From the NCBI GenBank assembly GCA_046706965.1, contig JBJKOX010000012.1, forward strand, positions 1 through 45,913: a stretch of DNA of 45,913 bases. Direction: 5' to 3'. Position numbers and translations under genes: made by a program. Below, one piece after another: positions 7,901 through 42,076 of the stretch. The notes beneath the pieces were generated by a model. The model searched no databases. It was not told where the DNA came from and was given only the letters and a program-made list of their open reading frames with translations. How positions within the stretch are numbered: the first letter of the stretch is position 1; the number at the start of each line of letters is the position of its first letter. This DNA is from Candidatus Pacearchaeota archaeon (GTDB lineage Archaea; Nanobdellota; Nanobdellia; Pacearchaeales; GW2011-AR1).

Positions 7901-10900
7901 TGTTACTACGTGGAGAGATATCCAGCTTGAATCAAGCCTTTTGGGCTCAAGTGATAAAACTGTAAGTCAAACTGCATTGAGCGCCTTGCAGTCTGATCTA
8001 GGAACCTGGTATGGGAACAATGAAGCGGCTACACAGGTTACGAAACAGGCTCAGAGCTTGGGAGTGGACCCTTCCAAGGTTACTCAGGTAGGTTCACCGA
8101 ATACTAAGACCGAACCTTATCTGGGGCTTACTTATAATGACATTCAAAATAAAGTTAGCTTGAGCGGCGTAGCTCCTAGTACCCCTATTGCAATTTTACA
8201 AAATAGAAACACTGGACTTTTATATTATGCAGTACTTGCTTCAGTTCAGGGGGGATATGGTATATCAAAAATTTATGATCAGACAGGATCTTTGGCATAT
8301 GATGCCTCTAAGACTACAACTCCCTCTAGTACTACAAGCGGAACACAAAAGAGCACCCCTAATAATAACCTACTTACAACCTTAGGACTAGAAGGAGTTG
8401 AGTTTAAAGTAAATCCTTACCAGAATCAAATTATCAATCCAGAAGTTTCCTATTATAATACTGGGCCTTATGCAGGGCTACCTGCGGTTATTCCTTTTGA
8501 CCCAAAAGATGGATGGTATGCCTACATACAGTCTGTTTTACCTACGGGCAGCAGCTCAAACTCAATAACTCCTTATGATAAATCTGGAAGAGTTTCGACT
8601 TTATACCTTTGCAATGTTGGCTCAGTTGGTATTGTTCAGGGTCCTTCAGGAGATTCATGTGTGCAGGAAAATCTTGCTACAGGCCAGGCATACACTAACT
8701 TTGGAGGACTTTCACAAGCTCAAACAAATCAGTATATACAGTGTGCAGTTAGTGCGGTTCAGCAAGCTTCCCAGAAATATAAATCAGGTGTGAGTTCGAT
8801 ATCAATAAGTACCTCTTGTGGAGGATCTGTATCTCTTAAAGTGGGAGCACCCTCTATCGGAACCCCTGCGATACAATGTGAAGATTTCATGTCCCCTTCA
8901 GACTGCAGTCTTCTTTTCAACGTTTGTGATCCTGTAGTTTGTCCTACAAGCAGGTGCAATCTTGGAGGGGCATATCCCGTATCAAATGTTGTCCAGTCAG
9001 GGATTATTGGAAGCGTCGCATTATGCTATCCTAATGCAAAGTGGCAAGGAGGTACTGACTATTTGCCTGTTTGTGTTACAGGGGTTAAGGCAGGACTTGA
9101 TGGGTATATAAGCATGCTGAAGTCCTTCAATTCGTGTTTGAATACAAGTTTACAGACAGGGCAAGTTGTGGGAATCTGTGACGAGATAAGCGCATTTTAC
9201 AAGTGCAATTTCTTCTGGAATGATGTTTATCCACTGGCAAAGCAGGGGGCTATTTCTGTTCTTGAGTCCTCACAGGGTGAACATACTTCAGGAGGAGGAG
9301 AATATCTTAATGTACAAAACGCTATATCTAACGCGAAGAGTGCTGCTAATTATTTCACACAAACTTATAGTGCACAGTCTTCCCAGGCATTCCAAGCTAG
9401 GAGTACACAGAGCCTTCAGGCAGATGTTTGCAGTCAATATGTTTCTGCGGTTGTGCCTGAAGCTAGTAGTATCATGAATTCTCTAAGTGCTCAAGCCTCC
9501 CCTCCACAATATTTCGGATTTTTCCAATCAACACCTTACACTACAGACACAAATCCCCCAATCTCGGAGTACAAAGTTTTTTATCACATTTATGCGGGAC
9601 AGTATCCCGCTTACTATGAGGTTTATCTGAAGGGTACTCAGGGTTCATATTATCAAGATACTGCACCTACCTATCAACTTGCTCAAGGTTATATTGCATC
9701 AGGACAATCGGTGGATCAAACTCCTGACTTCACCGCTCCTACTGGCTACAATCAACTTTGTATAAATGTAAATGGTCAAGAGGATTGCAACTTTAATGAG
9801 GTATCTACAAACTTCGCTGCAAATTATCTTGCTCAGGCATATACTGCTAATCAGGCATCTCAAAATGATATTACCACAACGGCCGGATGTAGTTCTACAA
9901 ATGGAATTGTAAGGGTTTGTGCAACTAATAGTCCTGGGCAAGGGACAGACCCTAATTATGGCACAACCAATGCGATATGGCAGCCTGTAGGATATTGTGA
10001 TACCCCCAATATGAAGTGCTGGCTTAATGAACAGAGTGTCACAAGTACTATAACGGATCAGAATCTGGCGCAAGGTGCTCTGCAAACAGCTACTGCAAAT
10101 GTCCAATCATACCTTTCTTCAAATTATATACATCCTGCAGACTTTTCAGGAATAGTCTCCGCAATACAATCTCTAAGCGATCCTTTAACAATTGTTAATA
10201 ATATAACTGCGACTCTTGCCAAGATTTATTATCCTAATGAAACAGGGTACCTTACACTTTTGAGGGGAGATACATATGCAATCCTTGCCGAGGACGCGCT
10301 TTTAGCTGCTAGGAGTGGTACATCTAGTTCCGTAACACCATGTGTTAATGTCACAACAGGCCCTGTAATGACTCTCCCTATTCCCTCAGGAATGACGTGG
10401 GGACAATATTGTACTAATGCAGGTAGCAATTACGCAAGTTGCACTCCCGCCACGTGTAGTGCAAATGAAGCAGGCACATCTACATTATGTGTTAATGTCA
10501 CAACAGGCCCCGCAATGACTCTCCCTATTCCTCCCGGAATGACTCAAGAACAATATTGTACTAATGCAGGTAGCAATTACGCAAGTTGCACTCCTGTCGC
10601 TTGCCCTGTGACAAATAATCAATTGACTCAAGAAACTTCCACTTCTGGTCAGTTTACTGCCTCTAACTCACTTAAGAGCGCTATAGCAAATTCAGATTAT
10701 TCTAATCTACAATACCCTCTACTTAATCTTAATAACATTTATTATCTTTATGTTGACGGGAATTGGTATTGGTCTACTGACAAAGACAGGTGGATAAGTT
10801 CAGATCTTTCAAGCCAGTTTTATGTTTCCGATAATACCCCTGTTCAGGCAATATCTACAACTACTTTAAATTTCAACCAACAATCTAGTTCTAACCAAGC

Positions 10901-11864
10901 GCTTATAAAATCTCTTGTGGGTGTTTCCTATGGAGGTGGCTTAAATCTACTTATAGGATTTGAAGAAAAGAATGGAGGTGGTTTTATTGGTATTGGTGGC
11001 TACCCTCTTTCAACAGAACATGTTTCCATGGATTCTAGTGGAGTCTTCAAGGTTAATATAATCTCCTCTACCTCTGCTCTTCAAGGCTACCTCTTTCAAT
11101 ATTCTAATGGACAGTGGATACTTCCTCAAGGAAATCAGGTTCCTGAAATTACTAATTTACTTAACTCTCTTGCAGGGAAATCTTTTTCAGAAGGCGCACA
11201 GATTCTCTTTTCAATTGACTCTGCAGGTGCGCCTAGCACTGCTACTTCTACCACTACCTCCGGAACCGGATCAACTACAGGAATTTCATGTACTACTCAA
11301 TCTAGTTGCCAAATAGCATTAGGTAATCAAATAATGAATATTGCACAACAGGTGGCAACAAAATATTCCATATCCGACGCTCAGGTCCAACAGGACACGG
11401 GTGTGAAAAGTTTTGCTTGCCTAGCTTTATTGGTCTCTAATCTTGAGAGTGGGATACAACAATGTGTAACTTATCAACAAAACGGAAACCCTTTATATTG
11501 CGAGGGTAATCCTGGTCAAGTATTGGGTGGAGATTCTACCCAAGGGGGGAGCTTCGGAGCCATGCAAGTAAATAAGGCTGCACAATCCAATGCTTTTACA
11601 AGTTCAAACCCAAATAATGCATATAATTTCAATTACAACGTGAATTATGCTCTCAACCTTTTAGCTGGCGATTACACCACAATACCTCGAACTTACGTAT
11701 GTAATTCTAAAACTTATAGTGGATGGGAGGCTGCATTGAGAAGTTATAATGGGTGGACGTCTTCTGCTGCAGGTTGCACATCAGGGAATATTAATTATGT
11801 AGAACAAGTTCTTGGGACAAACAACAAAAATCAGGTTAATGCTTTATTCCCCCAGTGTGCCTAA
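4989..11864 (+). CDS. giant (2,291 aa) secreted surface protein with a C-terminal lytic-transglycosylase (SLT-like) domain
   Basis: An uninterrupted 6.9-kb ORF starts 1 nt after the previous stop. The alternative start at 5046 gives MKNIFLILGTIFLMFFLVSQVSA-TYQ, a classic Sec signal peptide. The composition is S/T/N/Q/G-rich. There is a 10-Cys core, a tandem 49-aa Cys module, a T/S linker, and then the ES...GAMQVN...YNGW motifs. Confidence 0.9.
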   Translation: MKITFTEDNRIKRQGTNKNMKNIFLILGTIFLMFFLVSQVSATYQTTYNPAFSPTSTNYNVGNILSIIGNNQCSPSQDFILQINPTGCEDTPVRSDLLADQNVPVFCPVIATKINPLINVNDINSITFTGNFPPGVEGVTFVPYRAALSPATITSTGVSLQTGLTQQQIGGNIGYVVIVLKQQANESAIPKWINGTLTAHMNYNIQNAFGVGQVNYYLPDTTDQQWAQNYNSYSFWGGRGFLRATGITGNSATISVYSSTNVPNTPGNQKVLVSQSTLNVGQTSSSIPISGFSYCFGNMNVKLNGLQNPDTMAKLDVNGNTLELPAGQSFINGQCKLNSVSAQGIVSTASISCQTDTGNVNLPPLTISPQINLSVNGAPSKAYSVGDLLSATSDPSEFVYLGYIGRDSSGNLFIVPVVSPAQSSAAFKQTTIYNALPAAMQYMSWNSGSKSENLLKSVLGTLAGSLGSSTSWLVAGTAPLGTITQASNGGKGTFNSFNNIAVLSETINNLFSSGNVQDIVNNININGLVGPQDVPLSGDSKTYYDNAIKDYQSVIASYSQASYPDGNPVTFGEETLAHEAQFSYDMGQKATAQQLCKQLSNSYPDSQLIPNFCSNLDALASPTTSSQSVNINGQTYDISLEDVIQPTLSDYGVNITINQPGQPTLYAQLSKNQRYYISSTDYISLTGLTANSATFDISGVTPPALQQYTIASSSITAQLNGPYQTFGKNKYTLAVTGINLHQLASVTVQPNINYMNTNASFPFNIGVEKRAISLTPNQTRSLMNSTTDKIQKWTSISNQLGTVVTDMQDTCQAVGAYLTIKNFISDLSGEGLARAKVMSGPNGWAQKCADAVKNKKDPDTGAPATYTSVDACLIAHSSEIDNAVTVYQNAMNSQDQTYKNIQSQPGVSSSSNFLGQTVVDNSKVLAATVTSTATSAVASEASSAGLSTIKIKGQNVPVSEIMNAVSPTNIDVTTWRDIQLESSLLGSSDKTVSQTALSALQSDLGTWYGNNEAATQVTKQAQSLGVDPSKVTQVGSPNTKTEPYLGLTYNDIQNKVSLSGVAPSTPIAILQNRNTGLLYYAVLASVQGGYGISKIYDQTGSLAYDASKTTTPSSTTSGTQKSTPNNNLLTTLGLEGVEFKVNPYQNQIINPEVSYYNTGPYAGLPAVIPFDPKDGWYAYIQSVLPTGSSSNSITPYDKSGRVSTLYLCNVGSVGIVQGPSGDSCVQENLATGQAYTNFGGLSQAQTNQYIQCAVSAVQQASQKYKSGVSSISISTSCGGSVSLKVGAPSIGTPAIQCEDFMSPSDCSLLFNVCDPVVCPTSRCNLGGAYPVSNVVQSGIIGSVALCYPNAKWQGGTDYLPVCVTGVKAGLDGYISMLKSFNSCLNTSLQTGQVVGICDEISAFYKCNFFWNDVYPLAKQGAISVLESSQGEHTSGGGEYLNVQNAISNAKSAANYFTQTYSAQSSQAFQARSTQSLQADVCSQYVSAVVPEASSIMNSLSAQASPPQYFGFFQSTPYTTDTNPPISEYKVFYHIYAGQYPAYYEVYLKGTQGSYYQDTAPTYQLAQGYIASGQSVDQTPDFTAPTGYNQLCINVNGQEDCNFNEVSTNFAANYLAQAYTANQASQNDITTTAGCSSTNGIVRVCATNSPGQGTDPNYGTTNAIWQPVGYCDTPNMKCWLNEQSVTSTITDQNLAQGALQTATANVQSYLSSNYIHPADFSGIVSAIQSLSDPLTIVNNITATLAKIYYPNETGYLTLLRGDTYAILAEDALLAARSGTSSSVTPCVNVTTGPVMTLPIPSGMTWGQYCTNAGSNYASCTPATCSANEAGTSTLCVNVTTGPAMTLPIPPGMTQEQYCTNAGSNYASCTPVACPVTNNQLTQETSTSGQFTASNSLKSAIANSDYSNLQYPLLNLNNIYYLYVDGNWYWSTDKDRWISSDLSSQFYVSDNTPVQAISTTTLNFNQQSSSNQALIKSLVGVSYGGGLNLLIGFEEKNGGGFIGIGGYPLSTEHVSMDSSGVFKVNIISSTSALQGYLFQYSNGQWILPQGNQVPEITNLLNSLAGKSFSEGAQILFSIDSAGAPSTATSTTTSGTGSTTGISCTTQSSCQIALGNQIMNIAQQVATKYSISDAQVQQDTGVKSFACLALLVSNLESGIQQCVTYQQNGNPLYCEGNPGQVLGGDSTQGGSFGAMQVNKAAQSNAFTSSNPNNAYNFNYNVNYALNLLAGDYTTIPRTYVCNSKTYSGWEAALRSYNGWTSSAAGCTSGNINYVEQVLGTNNKNQVNALFPQCA
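10341..10594 (+). repeat. in-frame tandem duplication (147-bp period) encoding two 4-Cys modules
   Basis: Segments 10341-10447 and 10488-10594 are near-identical at the DNA level. They encode CVNVTTGPVMTLPIPSGMTWGQYCTNAGSNYASCTP and CVNVTTGPAMTLPIPPGMTQEQYCTNAGSNYASCTP. Confidence 0.9.
11380..11800 (+). other. SLT / family-1 lytic transglycosylase-like catalytic domain of the giant protein
   Basis: The motifs appear in canonical order: E-S (candidate catalytic Glu codon at 11445-11447, ...NLESGIQQC...), G-A-M-Q-V-N (11562 onward) and A-L-R-S-Y-N-G-W (about 11735-11757). A TSTTTSGTGSTTG linker precedes the domain. Confidence 0.7.
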
Positions 11865-13532: not shown

Positions 13533-13784
13533 ATGGCTAACGGAATTGAAAGACCTCTTGATCTTTTGAACAACTCTAAAGGCAAAGAAGTTCTTGTGCA
13601 CTTGAAGGGCGACAAACAGTTTGTAGGCACGCTTTTGGCTTTTGATATCCATATTAACCTTGTTTTAGATAACATCAAGGAAATGGAAAACAATGAAATA
13701 AAGCGAAACCTTGGACTTACGTTCCTTAGAGGAGATACAATTATCTTCATCTCGCCTGCTTCGACTGCTTTGAAAAAAGAGTGA
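13533..13784 (+). CDS. archaeal Sm-like (LSm/SmAP) protein
   Basis: The 83-aa protein has Sm1 (VLVHLKGDKQFVGTLLAFDIHINLVL) and Sm2 (FLRGDTIIFIS) motifs. Confidence 0.9.
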   Translation: MANGIERPLDLLNNSKGKEVLVHLKGDKQFVGTLLAFDIHINLVLDNIKEMENNEIKRNLGLTFLRGDTIIFISPASTALKKE

Positions 13785-13839
13785 TTCTTAATTGAGGATT
13801 TCTGGTTAAGTTTTTAAGGATTAATTTGTTTAGTTGCAC

Positions 13840-14748
13840 ATGCCAGAAGCAATAAAATTACATTTTCTTGGAACAGGGAGCATGATTCCTGATGCAAAGC
13901 GAGGGCACCCTGCTTTTCTATTGACTTACGGGGCAGAGAACATACTTATTGATTGTGGAGAAGGAACACAAATACAATTTAGGAAGGCACATCTTAATCC
14001 CTGTAAGGTAACGAAGATATTAATTACTCATTGGCATGGGGTTCATACATTCGGATTACCTGGATTTTTGAGAACTCTAGCTACTTCAGGGTACAAGAAG
14101 AAACTTGAAATTTATGGACCTTATGGATTTAAAAAACATATGGGTGAAATGTTTAGAGCATTCGGGGGAATTAATGAATATGAGATCTCTATCCATGAGA
14201 TCAACTCTTCAGGGAAATTTTTTGAAAGCTCTGGATTTTTCCTTGAATCTGAGAAAATGATTCATGTTCAACCTTGTAATTCATATAATTTTATAGCAAA
14301 GGGACATTCAAGAATCGACAAGATAAAAATGAAAAAGTTGAAGTTACCTCAAGGAGAACATTTACAAAAACTAAAGTCAGGAAAAGATATCACTATTAAT
14401 GGAAAGAAATTCAAGGCAAAAGATATATTGTTCAGAGAAGATGATAGAAAGATATCTTTCGTTATGGATACAAAGATAAATAAAAAAATTGTGCCCTTTG
14501 TAAAAGATGCGGAAGTACTTGTTTCTGAAGCTACATTTGGGAAAGGGGATGAGAAACTTGCAGAGGCATACCAGCATCTTACTGCTGAACAAGCAGCAAT
14601 GATTGCAAAGAAAGCCAATGTAAAAAAGCTATATATAACTCATTTGAGCGCGCGTAATGATGGTAATCTGAAAGAATTTTTGGCGGATGCTAAAAAGATT
14701 TTTCCTGAAACCTTTCTTGCGAATGAATTGATGGAAATCGATATGTAA
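13840..14748 (+). CDS. rnz: ribonuclease Z (tRNA 3' endonuclease, metallo-beta-lactamase fold) with an atypical metal motif
   Basis: RNase Z features are FLGTGS...PAFLL...ILIDCGEGTQ, ITHWHGVH (at the HxHxDH position), SEATF and ITHLSARN. I prefer the ATG at 13840 to the TTG at 13834 used by the track. Confidence 0.8.
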   Translation: MPEAIKLHFLGTGSMIPDAKRGHPAFLLTYGAENILIDCGEGTQIQFRKAHLNPCKVTKILITHWHGVHTFGLPGFLRTLATSGYKKKLEIYGPYGFKKHMGEMFRAFGGINEYEISIHEINSSGKFFESSGFFLESEKMIHVQPCNSYNFIAKGHSRIDKIKMKKLKLPQGEHLQKLKSGKDITINGKKFKAKDILFREDDRKISFVMDTKINKKIVPFVKDAEVLVSEATFGKGDEKLAEAYQHLTAEQAAMIAKKANVKKLYITHLSARNDGNLKEFLADAKKIFPETFLANELMEIDM

Positions 14749-14780: not shown

Positions 14781-14853
14781 AGCGAGGACCGGGATTCGAA
14801 CCCGGGAATACTCGGGCTGCAACCGAGCGCGTTAGCCACTTCGCCATCCCCGC
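14781..14853 (-). tRNA. tRNA-Cys(GCA)
   Basis: The minus strand reads GCGGGGA TG GCGA AGTGGCTA ACGC G CTCGG TTGCAGC CCGAG TATTC CCGGG TTCGAAT CCCGG TCCTCGC T. Confidence 0.85.
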
Positions 14854-14865
14854 ATGTTTTTTCAG

Positions 14866-14940
14866 CGCCCCCGACAGGATTTGAACCTGCGACCTACTGC
14901 TTAGAAGGCAGTCGCTCTATCCAGGCTGAGCTACAGGGGC
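14866..14940 (-). tRNA. tRNA-Arg(UCU)
   Basis: The minus strand reads GCCCCTG TA GCTC AGCCTGGATA GAGC G ACTGC CTTCTAA GCAGT AGGTC GCAGG TTCAAAT CCTGT CGGGGGC G. It lies 12 nt from tRNA-Cys on the same strand. Confidence 0.85.
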
Positions 14941-18855: not shown

Positions 18856-18953
18856 TGTCTCTGGGGAGATTTTAACTCCCGACCTCTGCCTTTCTCAACG
18901 AACTGGTTTTTATGTTCATGAGAGCAGCGCTCTAAACCCTGAGCTACAGAGAC
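18856..18953 (-). tRNA. tRNA with CAU anticodon (elongator Met or Ile2) and a ~25-nt intron after position 37
   Basis: The minus strand reads GTCTCTG TA GCTC AGGGTTTA GAGC G CTGCT CTCATG[AACATAAAAACCAGTTCGTTGAGAA]A GGCAG AGGTC GGGAG TTAAAAT CTCCC CAGAGAC A. G1-C72 argues against an initiator. The T-loop has A at the position where C56 is expected. Confidence 0.7.
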
Positions 18954-20158: not shown

Positions 20159-20677
20159 CTAAGGCCTAATCCATCTTACCTCATAATAACTGACGTCGTT
20201 TTCTTCATCAACTATTGCAAGGAGTAGGTTCTTTTTTGTGGAGTGGGCCACTCTGTTTTTAGCTGAAAACTCGTGCCATGTTATTTTTTTCGATTCATGA
20301 TCTGTAAAAACAATCCACTTAGCGTGCTTTTGACCTGGGTGGGAACCTTTTTCATAAACTCTGAAATCTGCGCCAAATTTCAATGCAGTCTTTACAACAT
20401 AACCTTTATTTCTTAAATCTTTAAAAACAGGATATTTTATATTTATGCGCCTGTCTTTAGAATAAATCTTCTTCATCAATTCCTTAAATGATAATTTGCT
20501 ATCTTTTTGGAAAACTTCTATGTAATTTTTTTCTTCTAGATAAAGAGCTTCAGGGAAAGAATATTTGATTTTTTCCCCTACAGGTTCTCCGAAATGTCTT
20601 TTTCTATAAAGAGAAAATGCCTCTGAAGAGTTTGTAGATATGTTTTCTCCAGTAAGTGTCGCCTGAATTTTTCTCAT
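20159..20677 (-). CDS. endA: tRNA-splicing endonuclease, short homotetramer-type subunit
   Basis: The 172-aa protein shows FSFPEALYLEEKNYIEV, VFKDLRNKGYVVKTALKFGADFRVYEKG....H(A)KWIV and LLLAIVD, which is the EndA catalytic-domain pattern. Confidence 0.85.
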   Translation of the reverse strand: MRKIQATLTGENISTNSSEAFSLYRKRHFGEPVGEKIKYSFPEALYLEEKNYIEVFQKDSKLSFKELMKKIYSKDRRINIKYPVFKDLRNKGYVVKTALKFGADFRVYEKGSHPGQKHAKWIVFTDHESKKITWHEFSAKNRVAHSTKKNLLLAIVDEENDVSYYEVRWIRP

Positions 20678-31250: not shown

Positions 31251-32384
31251 ATGACTAAGAAAAAAGAAGAAAAAAATATTTCTATAGAAAATTCTGGTGC
31301 TGCTGTATCTGAGAAACAAATGAATGAGGAAATGTCTAATTTGGATGAGGGCAAAAATGAAAGGGATTTCCTTGAAGTGCTAAAGATATTCTCTCCCGGG
31401 ACTGCTATAAGGACCTCTCTGGATGACATTTTACGTGCAGGTATGGGGGCACTTATCGTTATAGATAAAGAAGGCCTCTCTTCAATTATGGAAGGAGGAT
31501 TTAGAATAAATTCTAGGTTTAGCGCTCAAAAACTAGTTGAATTAGCTAAAATGGATGGGGCTATCGTTTTGTCTCAAGATCTTAAAAAAATACTATATGC
31601 CAACACCCTATTAACACCTAGTGCTAAGTTCCAAACTAAAGAAACAGGAACTAGGCATAAGGCTGCTGAAAGAACTGCAAGACAGTTTGGCACTATAGTT
31701 ATTGCGATATCTGAAAGGAAGAAAAAGATAACTCTTTTTTATAAAGATGAAAGCTATTTCCTTGAGGATACATCTGAGATTTTGAGGCGTGCAGCTGAGA
31801 CTCTTCAAGTACTGGAGAAACAAACAGATATGTTTAATGATCTTCTTTCTCATTTGAACATACTTGAAATTACAAACCTTACTACTATGAGTGATGTATG
31901 TAGTGTTCTTCAGACCTTAGAAATGATTAGGAGGATATCTGATATAGTCAAAAGGTATTTAATAGAACTAGGGAAAGAGGGGACTATTGTTAGTATGAGA
32001 TTGAAGGAACTTACGAGAAACCTTACTCGGGAGCGAGATAATATTCTTAAGGACTATTTTGGCAATCAATATATAGAGACTGATGAAATGTTGAAAAGTG
32101 TAAATTTTGATTTTTTACTAGAAACCTCAAACATATTACGCCTTGTTTTTGGAGAACTTCATGATGAAGCTATTGCCCCTCGGGGAGGGAGAATTCTAGG
32201 CAAGATGAACTTGCTTGAAAAAGATAGAGATTCTCTTCTAGAAACCTTTGGTACTCTAGATAAAATCTTCAGTGCAGATGTCAGTGAGCTTAAGAATGTT
32301 TTCAAGAATGAAAATCTTGTAAACTCTTTCCTGACAGAGATCAAAAGTCTTAAAGAGAAGATAATGATGGGTAAAAAGATATAG
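31251..32384 (+). CDS. disA: DisA-type diadenylate cyclase (DAC domain, helical linker and degenerate HhH tail)
   Basis: FSPGTAIRTSLDDILRAGMGALIVI is followed by DGA (31554-31562) and GTRHKAAERTA (RHK at 31653-31661). Both the length (377 aa) and the domain order match DisA. Confidence 0.8.
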   Translation: MTKKKEEKNISIENSGAAVSEKQMNEEMSNLDEGKNERDFLEVLKIFSPGTAIRTSLDDILRAGMGALIVIDKEGLSSIMEGGFRINSRFSAQKLVELAKMDGAIVLSQDLKKILYANTLLTPSAKFQTKETGTRHKAAERTARQFGTIVIAISERKKKITLFYKDESYFLEDTSEILRRAAETLQVLEKQTDMFNDLLSHLNILEITNLTTMSDVCSVLQTLEMIRRISDIVKRYLIELGKEGTIVSMRLKELTRNLTRERDNILKDYFGNQYIETDEMLKSVNFDFLLETSNILRLVFGELHDEAIAPRGGRILGKMNLLEKDRDSLLETFGTLDKIFSADVSELKNVFKNENLVNSFLTEIKSLKEKIMMGKKI

Positions 32385-32447
32385 GATTAAGAAATTAAAC
32401 GCTGGCAATCTTCATAAATCTTAAATAACCTCTATCCTTGAAGGATT

Positions 32448-33497
32448 ATGCTTACAGATAAACAAGTTTTGGAGATAAAGAAACATCTTGAGCGTGCTCA
32501 AAACCCTATTTTTTTCTTTGACAATGATCAGGATGGCCTTTGCTCCTTTCTTTTACTTCAAAGATATCTGGGAAGAGGTAAGGGCGTCCCAATCAAATCT
32601 TTTCCAGGGATGACTGCAGAATATTTTCGCCGCGTTCGAGAATTGCAGGCAGATTATATTTTCATTCTGGATAAACCTATGGTTTTTGATGATTTTTTTG
32701 AAGAAGCAAGAAAGGTTAACACCCCTATAGTTTGGATAGACCATCACCTTACAACCCAAAAAATACCTGATTACGTAAATTACTATAATCCTCTATCAAA
32801 CAAAAACAAAAGCGAAGAACCCGTTACCGCTTTATGCTATCAGGTAACTAGAAAGAAAGAAGATTTATGGATAGCCGTTGTGGGGTGCATTTCTGATAGG
32901 TTTGTTCCTTCTTTTTATAGAGAATTTGAAAAACAATACCCTGAACTTACAATAAATTCACAAGAAGCAACAGCCATCTATTATAAGTCCCTTATAGGGA
33001 AAATTGCGAAAATGTTTAGTTTCGGACTAAAGGATCGAACGACGAATGTTATCAATATGATTAGATTTTTAACTAAAGTAAAAAGTCCAGAAGATGTTCT
33101 TAACGAGAGTAGTAAAAATTATACTATGCATAAAAGATTTAATGACATCGAAAGTAAGTATCACAGACTTTTAAAAAAAGCAATCGGGCTAGAAAAAAAT
33201 AAGGATAAAATACTTTTTTTTCAATACGGGGGAGACTTAAGTATAAGCAGCGATCTTGCTAATGAATTGAGCTATCTTTTCCCCGAAAAACTCGTTGTTG
33301 TTGCTTATATAAGGGGCTCTCGGGCTAACATTTCTATTCGAGGTGAAAAGTCTAGAGATATTTTCTTAGAAGCCATTAAAGGCTTGGAGGATGCAACAGG
33401 AGGAGGTCATGAAGAAGCAGTTGGGGGGCGCATGAAGATAGAAGATATTGAAAAATTTCGTACCAATATAGAAAAAATCTCTAAGAAAAATGAATAG
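32448..33497 (+). CDS. DHH/DHHA1 family phosphoesterase (RecJ/NrnA-like)
   Basis: Motifs present are FFFDNDQDGLCS (DxDxDG), WIDHH (DHH at 32739-32747), GCISDRF and GGGHEEAVGG (GGGH at 33399-33410). Confidence 0.8.
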   Translation: MLTDKQVLEIKKHLERAQNPIFFFDNDQDGLCSFLLLQRYLGRGKGVPIKSFPGMTAEYFRRVRELQADYIFILDKPMVFDDFFEEARKVNTPIVWIDHHLTTQKIPDYVNYYNPLSNKNKSEEPVTALCYQVTRKKEDLWIAVVGCISDRFVPSFYREFEKQYPELTINSQEATAIYYKSLIGKIAKMFSFGLKDRTTNVINMIRFLTKVKSPEDVLNESSKNYTMHKRFNDIESKYHRLLKKAIGLEKNKDKILFFQYGGDLSISSDLANELSYLFPEKLVVVAYIRGSRANISIRGEKSRDIFLEAIKGLEDATGGGHEEAVGGRMKIEDIEKFRTNIEKISKKNE

Positions 33498-35444: not shown

Positions 35445-35516
35445 AGGCTCGTAGTTTAATGGATAGAACTTTCGGTTTCGGCCCGAAGGATGGGGGTTCG
35501 ATTCCCTCCGAGCCTG
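35445..35516 (+). tRNA. tRNA-Arg(UCG)
   Basis: AGGCTCG TA GTTT AATGGATA GAAC T TTCGG TTTCGGC CCGAA GGAT GGGGG TTCGATT CCCTC CGAGCCT G. It has an A1-U72 first pair and a 4-nt variable loop. A TTTTTATT box lies about 25 nt upstream. Confidence 0.85.
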
Positions 35517-35573
35517 CTCTTAATTTGGGCAGGTTCAGCTTCGTGCTACTTTCGATGCGAGTCGCACAGATAA

Positions 35574-36863
35574 ATGGAAAATAAAAAACAAAAACAAAAG
35601 CCTCAGCCGGGCGATCTTGTAGAAGTACATATGACCAAGGTCATCTATGAAGGAGTTTTGCTTGAAAGCCCTCAAGACTCAAGAGATATAATCTTACTGA
35701 AGCTTGATTCAGGATACAATATAGGATTCAAACGTAAGGATGTAATAAAGGTCAGTCTTCTTGAGAAGTTTAAGGAAAAGGAAGAAACATTACGTACTCC
35801 CTCAGCAAGAGGGAAACCTAAAATTGGAATGGTAATAACAGGGGGAACTATTGCTTCTCGTCTCGATTCTAGGACAGGAGGGGTGGATCCCTTATCTCGA
35901 CCAGATGACTTGTTTAAATTTTATCCTGAACTCTTTGATATTGTAGATGTTGCAGAGGTTGAAGTGCCCTTCATGAAAGCCTCAGAAGATATGGATTGGA
36001 AGGATTGGAAGAAAATTGCACAGGCTGTTCAAAAATTGCTAAATGATCCAGAAATAAAAGGAGTTATAGTAACACACGGCACCGATTTTTTACATTATAC
36101 TTCTGCAGCACTCAGTTTTTTTCTCCATGACTTGAACAAGCCTGTAGTTTTGACCTATAGCCAAAGGAGCATTGATCGTGCATCTTCCGATGCAAACCTT
36201 AACCTGAGATGTTCTGCGCTTGCTGCAATAAGTGATATAGCAGAAGTTATGTTAGTGGGACATGCCACGGAAAATGATGATTACTGCTTTTCTATGCCGG
36301 GAACAAAAGTCAGAAAACTCCATTCTTCACGGAGAGACGCATTTAAGATAGTCAACTCTGAGCCATATGCTAAGATTTATCCAGACCGTATAGAAATCCT
36401 ATCAGGGTATAATTCTAGAAACAACAAAAAGAGAGTAAAACTTGATACAAAATGGAATGATGCTGTTGCTCTTGTTAAATTTTATCCAGGGCAGAATCCT
36501 GATATCTTAGATTATTATCTAAAGAAAAAATACAAAGGGCTTATTATTGAAATGTCTGGTCTTGGCCATGTGGCAACGCGGCGTGCAAGAAACTCCTGGT
36601 TAAAAAAACTAACAGAAATACAAAAGAGAGGAATTGTTGTTTGCGCTGTCGCACAAACCATTTTTGGAAGACTTGATCCCTACGTTTATTCAAATGGGCG
36701 CGAAATTTTAAGGACCGGGGTAATCTATCTTGAAGACATGCTTGCAGAAACTGCATTGGTAAAATTAGGATATGTACTTGCTAAAACTACTGATAAAGAA
36801 AAGGTTAAGAAATTAATGCTAGAAAACTTTGCAGGCGAGCTAAATAACAGGTTAAGGAAATAA
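35574..36863 (+). CDS. gatD: Glu-tRNA(Gln) amidotransferase subunit D (asparaginase-like)
   Basis: The 429-aa protein has an N-terminal beta-domain, followed by the asparaginase motifs ITGGTIASR and VTHGTDF and the GatD-type C-terminal half. Confidence 0.9.
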   Translation: MENKKQKQKPQPGDLVEVHMTKVIYEGVLLESPQDSRDIILLKLDSGYNIGFKRKDVIKVSLLEKFKEKEETLRTPSARGKPKIGMVITGGTIASRLDSRTGGVDPLSRPDDLFKFYPELFDIVDVAEVEVPFMKASEDMDWKDWKKIAQAVQKLLNDPEIKGVIVTHGTDFLHYTSAALSFFLHDLNKPVVLTYSQRSIDRASSDANLNLRCSALAAISDIAEVMLVGHATENDDYCFSMPGTKVRKLHSSRRDAFKIVNSEPYAKIYPDRIEILSGYNSRNNKKRVKLDTKWNDAVALVKFYPGQNPDILDYYLKKKYKGLIIEMSGLGHVATRRARNSWLKKLTEIQKRGIVVCAVAQTIFGRLDPYVYSNGREILRTGVIYLEDMLAETALVKLGYVLAKTTDKEKVKKLMLENFAGELNNRLRK

Positions 36864-36871
36864 TTCTCTAT

Positions 36872-38287
36872 TTACAAAAATAAGCTTACAATCAGGGCTA
36901 TGGCACAGATTGACATGATTCCTGTGATAAGCCAACCCAAGATATTTGATATTCTCTTGTTTGTGTATTGACCCATAATTTTTTTGTTGTTTGAAATTTT
37001 CATTATCATTATCATGAGTGGCGGAGCTGCGATTCCATTTAGAACTGCAGTGTAATAAAGCATCCTGAATGGCGGGATCCCTATGAAATTTACAATGATC
37101 CCTATAATTGTTGCAAAGGCTATTATCCCATAGAATCCGTGAGCTTGCCTGAATTTCCTATACAATCCTTCTTTCATCTTGAATATTTCTGCAAGTGCAT
37201 ATGATCCTGAACCTGCGAGCACGGGAATTGCCAAAAGTCCTGTGCCTATTATTCCAAGAGCAAAGAGAAGATATGCAAACTCTCCTGTGAGGGGCTTTAA
37301 TGCTTGGGCAGCCTGATCTGCAGTCTGAATACTTGTGATTCCATGAACTCCTAATGTAGAAGCTGTTGTGACTATTATGAAAAACATTATAAGATTAGAG
37401 AAAAACATCCCACTTACCGTATCTGTTCTTAGGTTTCTGAGATCAACGCTTTTGAATTTAGGCACCCCTGCCCCCATACTTCTTAGCTCACGTCTTTCTA
37501 TCTCCTCTTCTACTTCTTCATTGGCCTGCCAGAAGAACAGATAGGGGGATATTGTTGTTCCTAGTATAGCGACTACATTTAGTAGGTAATCTTTCGAGAA
37601 GGAGAAGCTTGGAATGAAAGTAGATGCTAGAACTGACAACCAGTCTTGTTTGACCACGAACGCGACTATTACATATGATAAAAGTGAAAATGCAAAATAT
37701 TTCAGGATTTTTGCATATGTCCTATAAGAAACGAAAATTTCAAGTAATATTGTAAATATAGTTATTCCTATAAGCCACCAGATGAAATTTATCCCAAAAA
37801 CAAGCTGACCTGAAGAGGCCATTGCGCCAAGATCCGCCCCTATATTTATTATGTTTGCAATTAGGAGTATCAGGACTGAAAAATAGAGAATCCTTTTAGA
37901 ATAGTTTTTCTTTATTACTCCTGCCAGGCCTTTTCCTGTTACTAATCCTATTCGGCCACACATTTCTTGAATTGCAGCCATGAAGGGGAATGAGAAAAGT
38001 GCAGTCCAGAGTTGACCATATCCAAATTGTGCTCCTGTCTGAGAATAAGTGGCTATCCCTGATGGGTCATCATCTGATGCTCCCGTTATAAAACCAGGTC
38101 CAAGGCTTTTGAAAACTTTTTTTGTGAGGGCTACTGGAGACTCTTCTTTCTTCTTCCTTCCAAAAACCTCTTCTAGAAGATAGTTATATTTTTCTTCTCC
38201 TGGAATTCCAAGAATGAATCTTCTTCTTTCCTCAGACTCCTCTTTTCTTTTTGATTTTGTGGGCTTTTTCACACCCCTCTTTACCAT
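36872..38287 (-). CDS. NRAMP-family divalent metal cation transporter
   Basis: The 471-aa protein has about 11 TMs and shows LGPGFITGASDDDPSGIATYSQTGAQFGYGQLW together with an NRAMP-like TM pattern. Confidence 0.85.
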   Translation of the reverse strand: MVKRGVKKPTKSKRKEESEERRRFILGIPGEEKYNYLLEEVFGRKKKEESPVALTKKVFKSLGPGFITGASDDDPSGIATYSQTGAQFGYGQLWTALFSFPFMAAIQEMCGRIGLVTGKGLAGVIKKNYSKRILYFSVLILLIANIINIGADLGAMASSGQLVFGINFIWWLIGITIFTILLEIFVSYRTYAKILKYFAFSLLSYVIVAFVVKQDWLSVLASTFIPSFSFSKDYLLNVVAILGTTISPYLFFWQANEEVEEEIERRELRSMGAGVPKFKSVDLRNLRTDTVSGMFFSNLIMFFIIVTTASTLGVHGITSIQTADQAAQALKPLTGEFAYLLFALGIIGTGLLAIPVLAGSGSYALAEIFKMKEGLYRKFRQAHGFYGIIAFATIIGIIVNFIGIPPFRMLYYTAVLNGIAAPPLMIMIMKISNNKKIMGQYTNKRISNILGWLITGIMSICAIALIVSLFL

Positions 38288-38362
38288 AAAAATGCATGGA
38301 AAAAGATGTTATAAAGTTTGTCCATTAGGAAGATATTAATATTCTCATTTATTATCAATTTA

Positions 38363-38614
38363 ATGAAGAATATTTATCTTACCAAGAGCGAATTTTCTTC
38401 ATTGTATGTTTTTTATGAATTGGATACGAATGGAGGATGGCATAATAGACAGGAATTTAATGATGAGGGAAACAGCGGACTGGTTAAGAGAATTTTGGAG
38501 TTTGTACCTATTAATAGAAAAGCAATATTCCATTTAGTAAATTTGCCTGATGAACTAGCACTTGACCTTGCAGAAAAATATGAAGAATCAAAGGTTAAAG
38601 TACTTTTTGATTAA
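38363..38614 (+). CDS. hypothetical 83-aa protein (98 aa if the TTG at 38318 is used)
   Basis: I do not recognise a family. It is co-directional with and immediately upstream of the PIN and ligase genes. The C-terminus is acidic (LPDELALDLAEKYEESK). Confidence 0.4.
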   Translation: MKNIYLTKSEFSSLYVFYELDTNGGWHNRQEFNDEGNSGLVKRILEFVPINRKAIFHLVNLPDELALDLAEKYEESKVKVLFD

Positions 38615-38671
38615 TAACTCTAGAGGGGTTACAACAGTAAAATTTATAAGGTTTTGAAGGTTAAATCTTAA

Positions 38672-39307
38672 ATGAGAATTAAAAATATTGGTCCTCTTGA
38701 GGGAGATATCCTCCGAACATTTAGTGTAGACTCTATCCCTATGATAGTATTTGATACGAGTGGGTTAATTGATATTGCAACTTCCATTAGAAGATATAAC
38801 CTTTGCCATAGGAACGGCATAGGGGACATTAGGTATACAAGTCCAGATGTTTTTCTGAGAAATCTAAATGGCGCATCAAAGATTATAATAACTCCTTACA
38901 CCTATAAAGAAGTTGAGAAACATAGTCATACAATATTGAATAGGTATACAAATGAGTTAGAATCTCCAATAGTTAGTTTTTCATTTTATGCTCTGGAACA
39001 ATATATGGCAATTGCTTCTGAGTTAAAAAATAGTATCTCTTTGGATGAAGCGAGGTATGATGCTTACTGGGCAGCAAAATATGGATGTAATGGTAATGAA
39101 AAAAAATTTCTTGAAGGACCTTCTCTTACAGATAAGGAGATTTTAGGGACTGCCTCTTATTTAGCAAATGCTGAAATAAAGGGTCAAAGAATTAATCCCC
39201 TTATTGTTGTATCTTCAGATGCTCATATACTTAAGGGTGTAGAATTTTTAAGAAAAGAATTTGAAGATAAATATTCTTCCTTATCTCCCATTTCAACAAG
39301 ATATTAA
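38672..39307 (+). CDS. PIN-domain-like nuclease
   Basis: The 211-aa protein has four acidic positions in PIN order: IVFDTSGLID (Asp codon at 38753-38755), TPYTYKEVEKH, SLTDKEILGTA and LIVVSSDAHIL. Confidence 0.55.
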   Translation: MRIKNIGPLEGDILRTFSVDSIPMIVFDTSGLIDIATSIRRYNLCHRNGIGDIRYTSPDVFLRNLNGASKIIITPYTYKEVEKHSHTILNRYTNELESPIVSFSFYALEQYMAIASELKNSISLDEARYDAYWAAKYGCNGNEKKFLEGPSLTDKEILGTASYLANAEIKGQRINPLIVVSSDAHILKGVEFLRKEFEDKYSSLSPISTRY

Positions 39308-39316
39308 TAAATAATA

Positions 39317-40099
39317 ATGAAAAGCTCTCAGCCCATCTTTGTAAAATACCCTGAAATCCCTCATCTAGCAGAAACTCTTGATATACTGGATAGTAAGTAT
39401 CTTCAAGTTTTTGAGAAACTTGATGGGGGAAACAGCCAGATCCGGATGTCTGAAGGGAGACTTTTTTGTGGAAGCAGGGCTAATTTCTTGAGAAGAGAAA
39501 GGGACTTTAGATTTGACTGGTTTAGAGACTTTAACAAATGGGTCATGTCTAATTCCAGTTTTTATAACTTGCCTGAAAATCTAGTTCTTTATGGAGAATT
39601 TATGGCTCCACACACTTTAACTTATAACTCTGAATTCATCAATAGGTTCTTTGTGATTGATGTTTATGATCTCAACAAAAATAAATTTTTGCCCTATACG
39701 GAAGTTCGTAAGAATTTAGAAGATAGATTAGGAGTAGAAGATGTGTTATTTTTACCCATTCTTGTTCAAGGAACTCTTGATTTAGAGCGAGCTAAAGAAC
39801 TTGCTACTGGAAGTAGTGATTATTCTAAATATGGGAAGGAAGGAATAGTTATTAAAGATTATAAGCAACAAAAATTTGCAAAATTTTGGAGAACAAGTGC
39901 TAGTCCTACAGAGGAGGGCCTATTTGATGAGGTGCATCGGGTTATAAAAAGCATGGAGGTTGGAAACATACAAATTCAAAAACAACCTCTTGAAAACTTG
40001 TCTCGTGAAGTTTTCGCGGAACTATTACGTAGCGGCAGGTTTAATATATCTCTCGCAGAGATTTCTGATTGTGTTAAGAAGATGATAAACAAAATTTAA
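39317..40099 (+). CDS. ATP-dependent RNA ligase-like nucleotidyltransferase (KxDG superfamily, PF09414-like)
   Basis: KYPEIPHL is followed by motif I EKLDGGN (KLDG at 39416-39427), motif III/IIIa LYGEFMAPH, motif IV EGIVIKD and motif V KFAKFWR. The protein is 260 aa and has no OB or BRCT extension. Confidence 0.65.
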   Translation: MKSSQPIFVKYPEIPHLAETLDILDSKYLQVFEKLDGGNSQIRMSEGRLFCGSRANFLRRERDFRFDWFRDFNKWVMSNSSFYNLPENLVLYGEFMAPHTLTYNSEFINRFFVIDVYDLNKNKFLPYTEVRKNLEDRLGVEDVLFLPILVQGTLDLERAKELATGSSDYSKYGKEGIVIKDYKQQKFAKFWRTSASPTEEGLFDEVHRVIKSMEVGNIQIQKQPLENLSREVFAELLRSGRFNISLAEISDCVKKMINKI

Positions 40100-40109
40100 T
40101 AAACTCCAA

Positions 40110-41576
40110 ATGTATTTTTTGTTTATGGACGACAAAGGAATGTTTGAGGGCCTTAAGTCAGGTCTTGAAATACATCAACAGCTAAATACAGGAAAACTTT
40201 TTTGTGCTTGCCCTTCTGTTTTGCGACAAGATGAACCTGACTTCACCGTAAAAAGAAAATTACATGCAGTCGCAGGAGAAAGAGGAGGGGTTGATGTTGC
40301 TGCAGAATATCAAGCGTCTCAAGATAAAGAGTTTGTTTATCAAAGCTACGACACAAATTGTCTTGTAGAGCTAGATGAAGAGCCTCCTCATCAAATCAAT
40401 CCCGAAGCGCTTGAGATTACATTACAGATGGCACATCTTTTACATGCTAAAATTCTACCTATAACTCAAATTATGAGGAAGACAGTTATAGACGGGAGTA
40501 ATACTTCTGGATTTCAGAGAACTGTGGTGATTGCGCGCGATGGGTTCATAGAAACCAGTTTTGGGCGAGTGGGAATAGAAACTATTTGTTTAGAGGAAGA
40601 CTCTGCAAGAATTGTAAGCTCTGATAAACAAGAACACGTTACTGTTTATAGGCTCGATCGTCTTGGAATACCTCTTGTCGAGATAGCTACAACTCCGGAT
40701 ATTAAAACTCCTGCACAAGCAAAAGAGACTGCCCTGAAAATAGGGGAGATATTGCGGGCATGCAATGTCCGAAGGGGGCTTGGAACTATAAGGCAGGATG
40801 TGAATCTTTCAGTTAATTATCCGAAAGGAAAAAGAATCGAGCTTAAAGGATTTCAAGATATCAAAAATATTGAAACCGCAATTGAATTTGAAGTTACTAG
40901 GCAGAGAGATCTTATTGGTAAAAATAAAAGTATATCTGAAGTGAGAAAAGTTCTTCCTGATGGGCATAGTGAATTTCTAAGACCTATGCCGGGATCTGCA
41001 AGAATGTATCCTGAGACTGATTTGCCTTTGTTGAGAATTTCTAGACAAATGATTGATGATGCAAAAAAGAACCTTCCTAAACTTAAAGATGAGATTGAAA
41101 CAGAACTTGAGAAGGAAGGGCTTTCAAAAGATTTTGTTTCGCTCTTGATGAAACGAGGGAAGATTGAGGAATTTAAGGAGCTTATGAAAGTACTGAAACG
41201 CGCAGATCTTGTTGGAAAAATATTACTCGAGTATCCTAAGGAAATTTCAGGTCATGAGAAGATTCCACTTGAAAAAGTTGAACAGGTATTAACTATTGAT
41301 GTATTAGGAGAGATTCTTGAAAATGTTAAAAGGAGAGAACTTTCTGAGAATAATGTTGAACATGCTCTTGAAAATATAGTTAGGGGTGTCGCGCTGGAAA
41401 AAGCCTTAAAATTCGATACTATCTCTGTGGAGAATTTAGAGGGGCAAATTTTAAATCTTATAAAATCAAAACCGGGATTAACACCCAATGCTTACATGGG
41501 TTTAGTAATGAAGGAATTCAAAGGCCAAATTTCAGGTAAAGAGGCCATGGAAATTATTAGGAAAATTATAAAATAG
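40110..41576 (+). CDS. gatE: Glu-tRNA(Gln) amidotransferase subunit E, short form
   Basis: GatE-type motifs are GLEIHQQLNTGKLFCACPS, CLVELDEEPPH and RKTVIDGSNTSGFQRTVVIA, with a C-terminal YqeY-like tail (GLVMKEFKGQISGKEAMEIIRK). The start could be the ATG at 40110 or at 40125. Confidence 0.85.
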   Translation: MYFLFMDDKGMFEGLKSGLEIHQQLNTGKLFCACPSVLRQDEPDFTVKRKLHAVAGERGGVDVAAEYQASQDKEFVYQSYDTNCLVELDEEPPHQINPEALEITLQMAHLLHAKILPITQIMRKTVIDGSNTSGFQRTVVIARDGFIETSFGRVGIETICLEEDSARIVSSDKQEHVTVYRLDRLGIPLVEIATTPDIKTPAQAKETALKIGEILRACNVRRGLGTIRQDVNLSVNYPKGKRIELKGFQDIKNIETAIEFEVTRQRDLIGKNKSISEVRKVLPDGHSEFLRPMPGSARMYPETDLPLLRISRQMIDDAKKNLPKLKDEIETELEKEGLSKDFVSLLMKRGKIEEFKELMKVLKRADLVGKILLEYPKEISGHEKIPLEKVEQVLTIDVLGEILENVKRRELSENNVEHALENIVRGVALEKALKFDTISVENLEGQILNLIKSKPGLTPNAYMGLVMKEFKGQISGKEAMEIIRKIIK

Positions 41577-41620: not shown

Positions 41621-42076
41621 ATGGAATTACCCTATTACCCTCAAGAAACAAAAGATACCTGTGCCGCAGCTTCGCTTAGGATGATTCTTGAACCTTTAGG
41701 AATAAAAAAATCTGAGCGCTCGCTTGCAAAAGCACTCGGCACCAATAAAAAATCAGGTGTGCGCGTTGAAAACATGGTAAATTTTGTTGAACAAATGAAA
41801 CTCTGTTACGTTGTTTTTAGGAACGCCACCCTTAAGGATATTGAAGAGCGCCTTAAGCTAGGATATTTAATAATAGTCGGATATAGACACCCTGGCCGTA
41901 TAGGCCATTATGCCATTCTTCTAAAAATTGATGATACCCATGTTTATCTTCAAGATCCGAACCCCTTGACATCAAGGATAGTAAAATATTCAACAAAGTA
42001 TTTCGTTTCTCTATGGAAAAGAGGATTAAAATACGATAGAGAGAAACGTTGGTTTATAGGAATCATTAAACAATAA
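41621..42076 (+). CDS. peptidase C39-like (papain-fold cysteine peptidase) domain protein
   Basis: The 151-aa protein has YPQETKDTCAAASLRMIL (Q...C), GHYAILLKIDD (His) and YLQDPNP (Asp) in C39-like order. There is no signal peptide and no fused ABC transporter. Confidence 0.55.
   Translation: MELPYYPQETKDTCAAASLRMILEPLGIKKSERSLAKALGTNKKSGVRVENMVNFVEQMKLCYVVFRNATLKDIEERLKLGYLIIVGYRHPGRIGHYAILLKIDDTHVYLQDPNPLTSRIVKYSTKYFVSLWKRGLKYDREKRWFIGIIKQ

Follow-up and report, generated by a model that had tools for sequence, protein, structure and literature searches.

What are a predicted nuclease and a stand-alone RNA ligase doing between gatD and gatE, the genes for both subunits of one amidotransferase? 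The question is raised by contig JBJKOX010000012.1 of Candidatus Pacearchaeota archaeon (assembly GCA_046706965.1, positions 1 to 45,913 of the forward strand; this whole stretch of 45,913 nt is called the window below), in which three open reading frames (ORFs) encoding 98, 211 and 260 amino acids (aa) lie downstream of gatD and end shortly before gatE. A first-pass annotation made from the sequence alone had proposed that they form an RNA cut-and-reseal cassette, composed of a PIN nuclease, an RNA ligase and a small third protein. Comparison with related loci bore out the pairing of the nuclease with the ligase, whose genes were directly adjacent in all archaeal loci in which this could be tested, and removed the small ORF from the module.

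Gene order and inheritance

The locus is arranged as follows:

35445-35517, + strand: tRNA-Arg(TCG), directly upstream of gatD and in the same position in related loci
35574-36863, + strand: gatD (NCBIfam NF003217 at 1.4e-134, 448.9 bits; cutoff 310), conserved on the upstream side of the pair
36872-38287, - strand: Nramp divalent-metal transporter gene (PF01566 at 6.7e-88), a window-specific insertion outside the module
38318-38614, + strand: ORFan restricted to this lineage and located in the variable slot; 98 aa with the TTG start, 83 aa with the ATG at 38363
38642-38649, + strand: TATA-like TTTATAA(G), read directly in the sequence about 25 nt 5' of the nuclease ATG
38672-39307, + strand: gene for a predicted PIN-like metallonuclease of an undescribed family, 211 aa, with the tetrad D28, E80, D154, D183
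39317-40099, + strand: gene for a predicted minimal ATP-dependent RNA ligase, 260 aa (PF09414), with K34 as the adenylylated lysine
40110-41576, + strand: gatE, short form of 488 aa (NF003107, 470.3 bits against a cutoff of 456), the conserved downstream neighbour

The three ORFs are co-directional on the + strand with intergenic spacings of 57 and 9 nt, followed by 10 nt to the gatE start at 40110; the coordinates and gaps reported at first were exact. The cassette had also been described as wedged between gatD and gatE. This order holds, but the minus-strand Nramp gene, which had gone unmentioned, intervenes as well, and together with the ORFan it separates gatD from the pair in the window. 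The GC content of the region (34-39%) is the same as in the rest of the window. Because gatD is displaced here, the pair perhaps needs a promoter of its own, and the TTTATAA(G) element may be a candidate archaeal promoter for a nuclease-ligase-gatE unit. Co-transcription of gatE with the pair is probable.

In related loci (numbered with the prefix L), which lie on about 45 other DPANN/Nanoarchaeota genome fragments, all 44 testable archaeal cases had the ligase gene directly after the nuclease gene, so that the co-occurrence in other genomes anticipated by the first-pass annotation was found. Seeding with the ligase yielded 21 loci from GTDB species representatives, and all 20 archaeal ones carried a nuclease homologue directly upstream on the same strand; they belong to metagenome-assembled genomes of Nanoarchaeota, Woesearchaeota and Pacearchaeota and to two bins with a non-DPANN label. 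Seeding with the nuclease yielded 15 metagenome loci, 14 with the ligase directly next and a fifteenth that stops at the contig edge. Distant nuclease members of about 20% identity (P0120, P0170, P0193, P0186, P0145, P0184 and P0174) showed the same arrangement each time, as did the loci of the divergent ligases P0060 and P0059. Exceptions to adjacency were one frameshifted copy, one contig end and one bacterium of the candidate phyla radiation with a weak, partial ligase. The hosts of the pair are mesophilic DPANN archaea from groundwater or sediment. Pairing of the two genes is well beyond chance.

The two bins with other labels, Candidatus Omnitrophota bacterium (L012) and Methanosarcinales archaeon (L020), contain the full archaeal arrangement; either these contigs are mis-binned or the bin labels are wrong, probably.

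The gap between nuclease and ligase genes ranged from -53 to +18 nt with frequent 4-nt overlaps, and such short distances suggest translational coupling. This junction was uninterrupted in every locus; unrelated genes were often inserted on either side of the pair. The usual order was gatD, a variable slot, nuclease, ligase and gatE, with gatD upstream of the nuclease in most loci at a distance of 27-2265 nt. The ligase-to-gatE gap was mostly 24-40 nt, with 25 nt as the commonest value, compared to 10 nt in the window, where a start at the second or third in-frame gatE ATG would give 25 or 40 nt, in agreement with the commonest value elsewhere. In one divergent lineage a gene for Endonuclease V (PF04493) follows the ligase in place of gatE (L039, 6534-7232; L040, 1974-2672). 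Nicks introduced by Endonuclease V, which acts on nucleic acid at inosine, have 3'-OH and 5'-phosphate ends, and in the lineage of L039 and L040 they could be resealed by an ATP-dependent ligase.

To characterize the mode of inheritance, identity matrices were compared pairwise over the 21 loci in which all four genes are complete. Those of nuclease and ligase correlated with r = 0.94, those of nuclease and gatE with r = 0.81 and those of ligase and gatE with r = 0.76 (Mantel p = 0.001 in both comparisons with gatE); the correlations of the pair with gatE were at least as strong as that between gatD and gatE (r = 0.70). Since the pair and gatE co-diverge, we conclude that the pair is inherited vertically with the operon. 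Mean pairwise identity was 39% for the nuclease and 49% for the ligase, compared to 64% and 62% for gatD and gatE, respectively. Evolution of the pair is faster than that of the amidotransferase, yet the catalytic residues are kept, a behaviour unlike that of toxin-antitoxin or defence cassettes.

The two enzyme families

The 211-aa protein itself had no match in Pfam, NCBIfam, PADLOC, PHROGs or the PDB sequences. A word-based search detected 12 homologues, and their profile, used in a full HMMER search, led to 133 representatives after clustering at 50%, nearly all of them single-domain proteins of 200-250 aa. Among 103 diverse members with identities down to about 20%, the only invariant columns are D28, E80, D154 and D183, exactly the four acidic PIN positions that had been picked out from the single sequence; I33, D34, H84, E95, S151 and H185 are nearly invariant. 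When the 103 members were scanned against Pfam at E <= 1, all matches stayed below the Pfam gathering scores. PIN_4 was matched by 16 members (best 7.8e-5), PIN_12 by 11, PIN_6 by 3 and PIN by 2, PIN_8, NYN and PIN_3 by one member each, and each non-PIN family by just one member. A profile of the 103 members found no match among PDB sequences, HARP structures included.

The AlphaFold2 (AF2) model of the nuclease has a predicted local distance difference test score (pLDDT) of 89.9. Strands and helices alternate in it, and the acidic residues follow strands 22-27, 70-72 and 172-181 and fall in helix 152-165, as expected for the positions of a PIN active site. A helical insertion at about 98-148, ahead of the third acidic residue, bears the family-conserved elements R128-Y-D-x-Y-W and K144-K145. 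On the family-level sequence evidence, we accept the 211-aa protein as a PIN-like nuclease of an undescribed family, for which neither Pfam nor NCBIfam holds a model.

PIN domains of the SMG6/EST1A type (PIN_4.COG1875) resemble this family in their D-E-D-D tetrad, which in SMG6 consists of D1251, E1282, D1353 and D1392 (PMC5499597). Furthermore, PIN_4 was the family most often matched (16/103), and SMG6/EST1A structures were the best PIN matches of the model in Foldseek. The similarity is marginal, however: the best PIN_4 match came from one member, the window protein itself had none, and the insertion of about 50 residues as well as the unrelated gene context set the 211-aa family apart.

The 260-aa protein matched a single Pfam family, PF09414 (RNA_ligase; 7.5e-20, 72.2 bits against a cutoff of 27), and the phage RNA-ligase family phrog_548 of PHROGs at 4e-16. 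Its score against the NCBIfam Rnl3 equivalog TIGR01209 was 32.5 bits, compared to a cutoff of 136.9, and the closest PDB sequence was Rnl3 Pab1020 (2vug) at 1e-4. Ligase motifs I, III, IV and V and the preceding KYPEIPHL, all of them read correctly in the first-pass annotation, are conserved across 28 homologues: K34/D36/G37/N39 in EKLDGGN, E94 in YGEF, E175/G176/K180 in EGIVIKD, F187/K189 in KFAKFWR and K10-Y11 in the N-terminal element. Invariant in these 28 sequences are K10, Y11, K34, D36, G37, N39, G52, F72, E94, Y103, D115, Y127, E175, G176, K180 and Y182, and K189 is nearly so. We take the N-terminal K-Y motif to resemble that of Rnl2-type enzymes.

In the AF2 model of the ligase (pLDDT 90.9), the nucleotidyltransferase domain (about 8-195) begins only 8 residues into the protein, which ends after three further helices (199-259). 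Foldseek placed Naegleria NgrRnl (Rnl5) at the top, with 4.5e-9 and 22-24% identity over the nucleotidyltransferase domain only. The Rnl3 structure 2vug aligned over the whole query (274 columns, template modelling (TM) score 0.61), accompanied by other Rnl3 entries (8uc*, 5d1o and Aquifex 3qwu), and T4 Rnl2, T4 Rnl1, REL1 and Trl1 were matched as well. T4 Rnl2 reached 5e-8 but at 14% identity and a root-mean-square deviation of about 14 A. RNA ligases (Rnl5, Rnl3, Rnl2, Rnl1, REL1) lay between 1e-9 and 1e-7, whereas DNA ligases reached only 1e-5 to 1e-4. The Pfam family, the closest PDB sequence and this structural ranking agree in predicting an ATP-dependent RNA ligase and not a DNA ligase, as had been proposed at first.

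Assignment to a described RNA ligase family was less straightforward. The protein shares the nucleotidyltransferase core with Rnl3 (Pab1020, MthRnl, PpaRnl, Aquifex 3qwu), and in size its three C-terminal helices come close to the dimerisation domain of these enzymes. However, Rnl3 enzymes have about 380 aa, comprising an N-terminal domain (1-63), the nucleotidyltransferase domain (64-241), the dimerisation domain (242-312) and a C-terminal domain (313-380; numbering of PpaRnl, PMC11040149). The 260-aa protein lacks the first and the last (PF18330) of these, and with TIGR01209 below its cutoff it was not assigned to Rnl3, of which it is at best a remote, truncated relative. Rnl5 (NgrRnl, Deinococcus DraRnl) and Rnl2 (T4 Rnl2, trypanosome REL1) belong to the same Pfam family PF09414. 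The N-terminal domain that defines Rnl5 and binds nicked duplexes is missing from the 260-aa protein, which has, unlike Rnl5, a helical module of about 60 aa at its C-terminus; Rnl5 was therefore rejected, too. Compared to the C-domain of Rnl2, this module is shorter. The enzyme is thus a minimal RNA ligase without a clean fit to any of the Rnl1-6 definitions; it is among the smallest stand-alone RNA ligases and possibly useful as a minimal enzyme for the development of RNA tools.

Known systems and possible roles of the pair

PIN-like nucleases coupled to RNA ligases have precedents. In 89% of the genomes that have HARP, a 23-kDa PIN_5 protein-only RNase P, Rnl3 is present as well, and the two genes are often adjacent (Seshadri and Gopalan 2025, PMC12153264). 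Already in 2017, PIN_5 was noted to co-occur with a TIGR01209 ligase, a tRNA methyltransferase and tRNA synthetases (Matelska et al. 2017, PMC5499597). The statement in the first-pass annotation that no PIN-ligase pair of this kind had been described is therefore out of date. For HARP and Rnl3, 5'-maturation coupled to C/D-box RNA circularisation, 5'-adenylylation and a toxin-antitoxin function, which is disfavoured, have been proposed (PMC12153264). HARP is reported to be absent from all DPANN (PMC6380272), and a literature search found no account of the present pair in DPANN papers.

Both pairs combine an ATP-dependent RNA ligase with a PIN-like metallonuclease that has about 200 aa and contains a helical insertion, and both have tRNA-related gene neighbours and show no antitoxin-like features; the best PDB sequence relative of the 260-aa ligase is, as mentioned, an Rnl3. 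In HARP, a two-helix 'spike' with basic residues that bind pre-tRNA is inserted just before the second catalytic aspartate (PMC8266387). The insertion at 98-148 lies at the corresponding place, a resemblance that is topological only. The catalytic residues of HARP are D7, D138, D142 and D161 (PMC8266387), in contrast to the D-E-D-D tetrad with its invariant glutamate in the 211-aa family. Moreover, the HARP models PF08745 and TIGR03875 (PIN_5) did not match the 211-aa protein at E <= 1, and PIN_5 was neither among the 25 Pfam families listed for the 103 members at this threshold, beside which 29 further ones were matched, nor among the four that they matched at E <= 0.01. The missing PIN_5/TIGR03875 signal and the different catalytic pattern led us to reject the protein as a HARP and to keep HARP-Rnl3 as an analogy.

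Gene organization differs as well. HARP and Rnl3 genes, whose hosts are extremophiles, are mostly divergent in orientation and adjacent in a third of the archaeal cases, with 10 tandem cases reported, whereas in the mesophilic DPANN the two genes are found side by side and in tandem throughout, and nearly always abut or overlap. Because this coupling is much tighter, the DPANN pair offers a cleaner system for testing such pairs. It is analogous to HARP-Rnl3 but stands outside those families, and it constitutes a second instance of a coupling that was recently proposed for HARP and Rnl3 without experiments. What is new here is the undescribed nuclease family with its minimal ligase; the pairing of a PIN-like nuclease and an RNA ligase as such was known already.

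The observed gene order, adjacency and co-divergence, together with the intact conserved catalytic residues and the family affinities, are consistent with a housekeeping function in which nuclease and ligase act one after the other on a stable structured RNA and are co-expressed with gatE, gatD and tRNA-related genes. We favour this reading and see the chances for and against it as evenly balanced. Metal-dependent PIN-like nucleases leave 5'-phosphate and 3'-OH ends, and ATP-dependent ligases act on ends of this kind. On this view, Woese-/Pacearchaeota-type Nanoarchaeota (DPANN) inherit the two genes vertically as a module, in which the upstream one would specify a PIN-like Mg2+/Mn2+ endoribonuclease and the downstream one a minimal ligase joining 5'-phosphate to 3'-OH via a lysine-AMP intermediate. 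Both would act in turn on one RNA, for which a tRNA precursor or some other small non-coding RNA is the likeliest candidate. Cleavage by the nuclease at a defined site would generate 5'-phosphate and 3'-OH ends, which the ligase would then join or circularise. The outcome would be a 'cut, then join' step of maturation or quality control, and the module would be a functional DPANN counterpart of the HARP (PIN_5)-Rnl3 pairing in other archaea and thermophilic bacteria.

A role related to tRNA, suspected at first from the embedding among tRNA-dependent enzymes, is plausible from the neighbourhood. The surroundings of the pair are centred on tRNA, with tRNA-Arg(TCG), gatD, gatE, two genes of the aspartyl-tRNA synthetase (AspRS) type and a prolyl-tRNA synthetase (ProRS) gene. 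Besides the window, tRNA-Arg(TCG) closely precedes gatD, in the same orientation, in L001 (3902-3973), L005 (151-223), L006 (2974-3047), L014 (3167-3240), L022, L024 and L025. Its distance to gatD is 8-60 nt in most of them and about 140 nt in L005; in L014 it overlaps the called gatD ORF, and in L041 it is located further upstream, ahead of a ProRS gene that precedes gatD. The tRNA may be co-transcribed with the operon and would then require endonucleolytic release.

The following features of the window, apart from the LSm gene, show that ordinary tRNA-processing machinery is present, which takes away part of the case for a role of the pair in tRNA metabolism:

1433-1527 and 18856-18953, - strand: tRNAs of 95 and 98 nt, found with Rfam and not called by ARAGORN, which probably contain introns
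13533-13784: LSm protein
13834-14748, + strand: metallo-beta-lactamase-fold protein of 304 aa, a candidate RNase Z
14781-14940, - strand: tRNA-Arg(TCT) and tRNA-Cys in tandem, 11 nt apart, whose separation requires an endonucleolytic cut
20159-20677, - strand: EndA, the canonical tRNA-splicing endonuclease, 172 aa (PF01974+PF02778)

Since canonical EndA is encoded in the window, a replacement of the intron-cutting step of tRNA splicing by the pair was rejected. An Rfam scan of the 46-kb window detected tRNAs only, with no RNase P RNA or other structured RNA near the pair, a result that holds for the window and does not imply genome-wide absence.

Several observations weigh against the housekeeping reading. 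With EndA and an RNase Z-like gene in the window, there is no obvious gap in tRNA processing for the pair to fill. Foldseek searches of the PDB with the nuclease model were weak and gave no match with E < 0.2; the best PIN matches, SMG6/EST1A (2dok, 2hwx) and PAE2754 (1v8p), had probabilities of 0.15-0.30 and TM scores of 0.35-0.44, of which 2dok and 2hwx reached a probability of 0.30 and 0.43-0.44 on the target. Fold-level support for the PIN assignment is thus weak and no more than suggestive, and as this confident AF2 model found no significant PDB match, the assignment rests on the family-level evidence. The pair also occurs without gatD or gatE nearby (L018, L020, L045), and its link to these genes could be a historical accident. 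Gene adjacency by itself does not prove that both enzymes share one RNA, and the activities and the substrate ascribed to the two families are predictions from sequence.

The nearest relatives of the ligase, Rnl5 (NgrRnl/DraRnl) and Rnl2, are nick-sealing repair enzymes (PMC7261155, PMC11040149), and for Rnl3 a 'safety net' function was raised by Seshadri and Gopalan (PMC12153264). The pair might hence repair RNA breaks, the ligase resealing tRNAs or rRNAs broken by accident or stress and the nuclease trimming damaged ends, and Endonuclease V after the ligase in L039 and L040 would suit such a function. We regard this as unlikely. No end-healing enzyme, be it a kinase, a phosphoesterase or a Hen1-like methyltransferase, is linked to the pair in any locus, the constant operon place beside gatE looks constitutive and not stress-induced, and the Endonuclease V neighbour is confined to one lineage.

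A bolder form of the nuclease-then-ligase scheme, which we consider quite unlikely, would be an obligate complex performing programmed, protein-only 'cut-and-rejoin' with 5'-phosphate/3'-OH ends on tRNA or other translation RNA in these DPANN. Examples would be PIN-based, RNase P-like maturation of tRNA ends combined with ligation or circularisation, or RNA rearrangement or splicing distinct from EndA/RtcB. If this were true, the independent recurrence of PIN-ligase pairing in two unrelated family pairs, HARP-Rnl3 and the one described here, would represent a general principle of archaeal RNA processing.

The position of the pair between both subunit genes of one enzyme in most loci raises the question whether it serves the GatDE pathway, either by acting on tRNA-Gln or its precursor or by binding the short GatE. 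GatE of this lineage has 457-498 aa and aligns to the 630-position GatE model in two stretches, still above the equivalog cutoff, and is predicted to lack the AspRS-like insertion domain of canonical GatE. An accessory function could be related to this reduced size (only about 460-500 aa), and would be in line with the tight, near-constant ligase-gatE gap of about 25 nt and with the divergence of the pair, which tracks that of gatE. On the other hand, the invariant catalytic residues imply that nuclease and ligase reactions do take place, and transamidation is not known to require either. Loci such as L018, L020 and L045 keep the pair without gatD or gatE, L039 has Endonuclease V after the ligase, and the frequent insertion of unrelated genes on either side likewise speaks against a dedicated link. 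This makes an accessory of GatDE improbable.

It had been suggested at first that the locus could be a toxin/antidote-by-repair module, and an anti-virus function can be grouped with this: a PIN toxin would cleave tRNA or rRNA, and damage of this kind would be undone by the ligase. About 20% of prokaryotic PIN-like proteins are toxins of toxin-antitoxin systems, and operons of PIN_3.COG1569 with ligases are possible conflict systems (PMC5499597); the end chemistry expected of the nuclease would match that of the ligase. Nevertheless, a mobile toxin/antidote cassette is disfavoured by the syntenic position, which stays the same from order to order, and by the co-divergence of the pair with gatE (r = 0.76-0.81). 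There is one pair per locus, without a PADLOC match, a small DNA-binding antitoxin or mobile-element genes beside it, and a genuine PIN_2+RHH pair present in L048 looks quite different. In Thermococcus, knockout of Rnl3 caused no growth defect, which was argued to speak against a toxin-antitoxin role there (PMC12153264). With VapBC the pair has in common a PIN-fold nuclease with four acidic residues, but the nuclease has 211 aa compared to about 130, its partner is a 260-aa enzyme and not an inhibitor, the upstream ORFs are unrelated to one another, and the locus is fixed and vertically inherited. Assignment to VapBC-type modules was thus rejected, and a toxin/antidote function appears very improbable. 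A DNA-directed pair, in which a FEN-like flap or primer nuclease and a nick-sealing ligase take part in replication or ribonucleotide repair, is hardly credible: FEN/Exo1-type nucleases belong to the PIN-like superfamily and were among the weak Foldseek matches, and Rnl5 and Rnl2 seal nicks in duplexes (PMC7261155), but profile matches pointed to the VapC-group families PIN_4, PIN_12 and PIN_6 and not to FEN families, the ligase compared far better to RNA than to DNA ligases, and the neighbourhood is related to translation and not to replication.

Sequential action of the two enzymes on a stable RNA, as set out above, is the reading that we retain. Both are kept with intact active sites in very small genomes, and this retention implies an important function. 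Candidate roles for such pairs include maturation of tRNA or small-RNA ends followed by circularisation, repair, or something new.

The variable slot and other genes of the window

The stretch that separates gatD from the nuclease gene is an insertion hot spot for unrelated small genes (window, L002, L006, L013, L014, L019, L036, L039, L041 and L046-L048). It contains the Nramp gene and the ORFan in the window (36872-38614), and DUF1003 proteins or orphan ORFs of 75-133 aa elsewhere; the Nramp gene is missing from this position in all other loci. The 98-aa ORF had no homologue in the related loci or among 5.8 billion clustered proteins, in which the sole entry was the window's own 83-aa version, called from the ATG at 38363 by a public gene caller. 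ORFs found in the slot of other loci were unrelated to it and to one another. These results led us to reject the small ORF as a third component of the module, contrary to the initial proposal. Its codon usage is gene-like (0.32-0.41, compared to 0.33 +/- 0.05 for real genes and <= 0.29 for shadow ORFs), and it is probably a real, lineage-specific gene.

Three further observations concern genes outside the locus or at its downstream edge. A 2291-aa ORF (4989-11864, + strand) and the preceding 616-aa ORF (3137-4987, + strand) had no Pfam match at E <= 0.001 and may encode proteins that act at the DPANN cell surface or in contact with a host. A stand-alone C39-family cysteine peptidase domain of 151 aa (41621-42076, + strand), without an attached ABC transporter, is encoded in the interval that separates gatE from a small K+ channel gene; it is specific to the window and missing from this position in most related loci. 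Finally, a DisA-type diadenylate cyclase (DAC and DisA linker) is followed by a DHH/DHHA1 phosphoesterase at 31251-33497 (+ strand), which suggests that a DPANN genome encodes both synthesis and breakdown of cyclic di-AMP for signalling.

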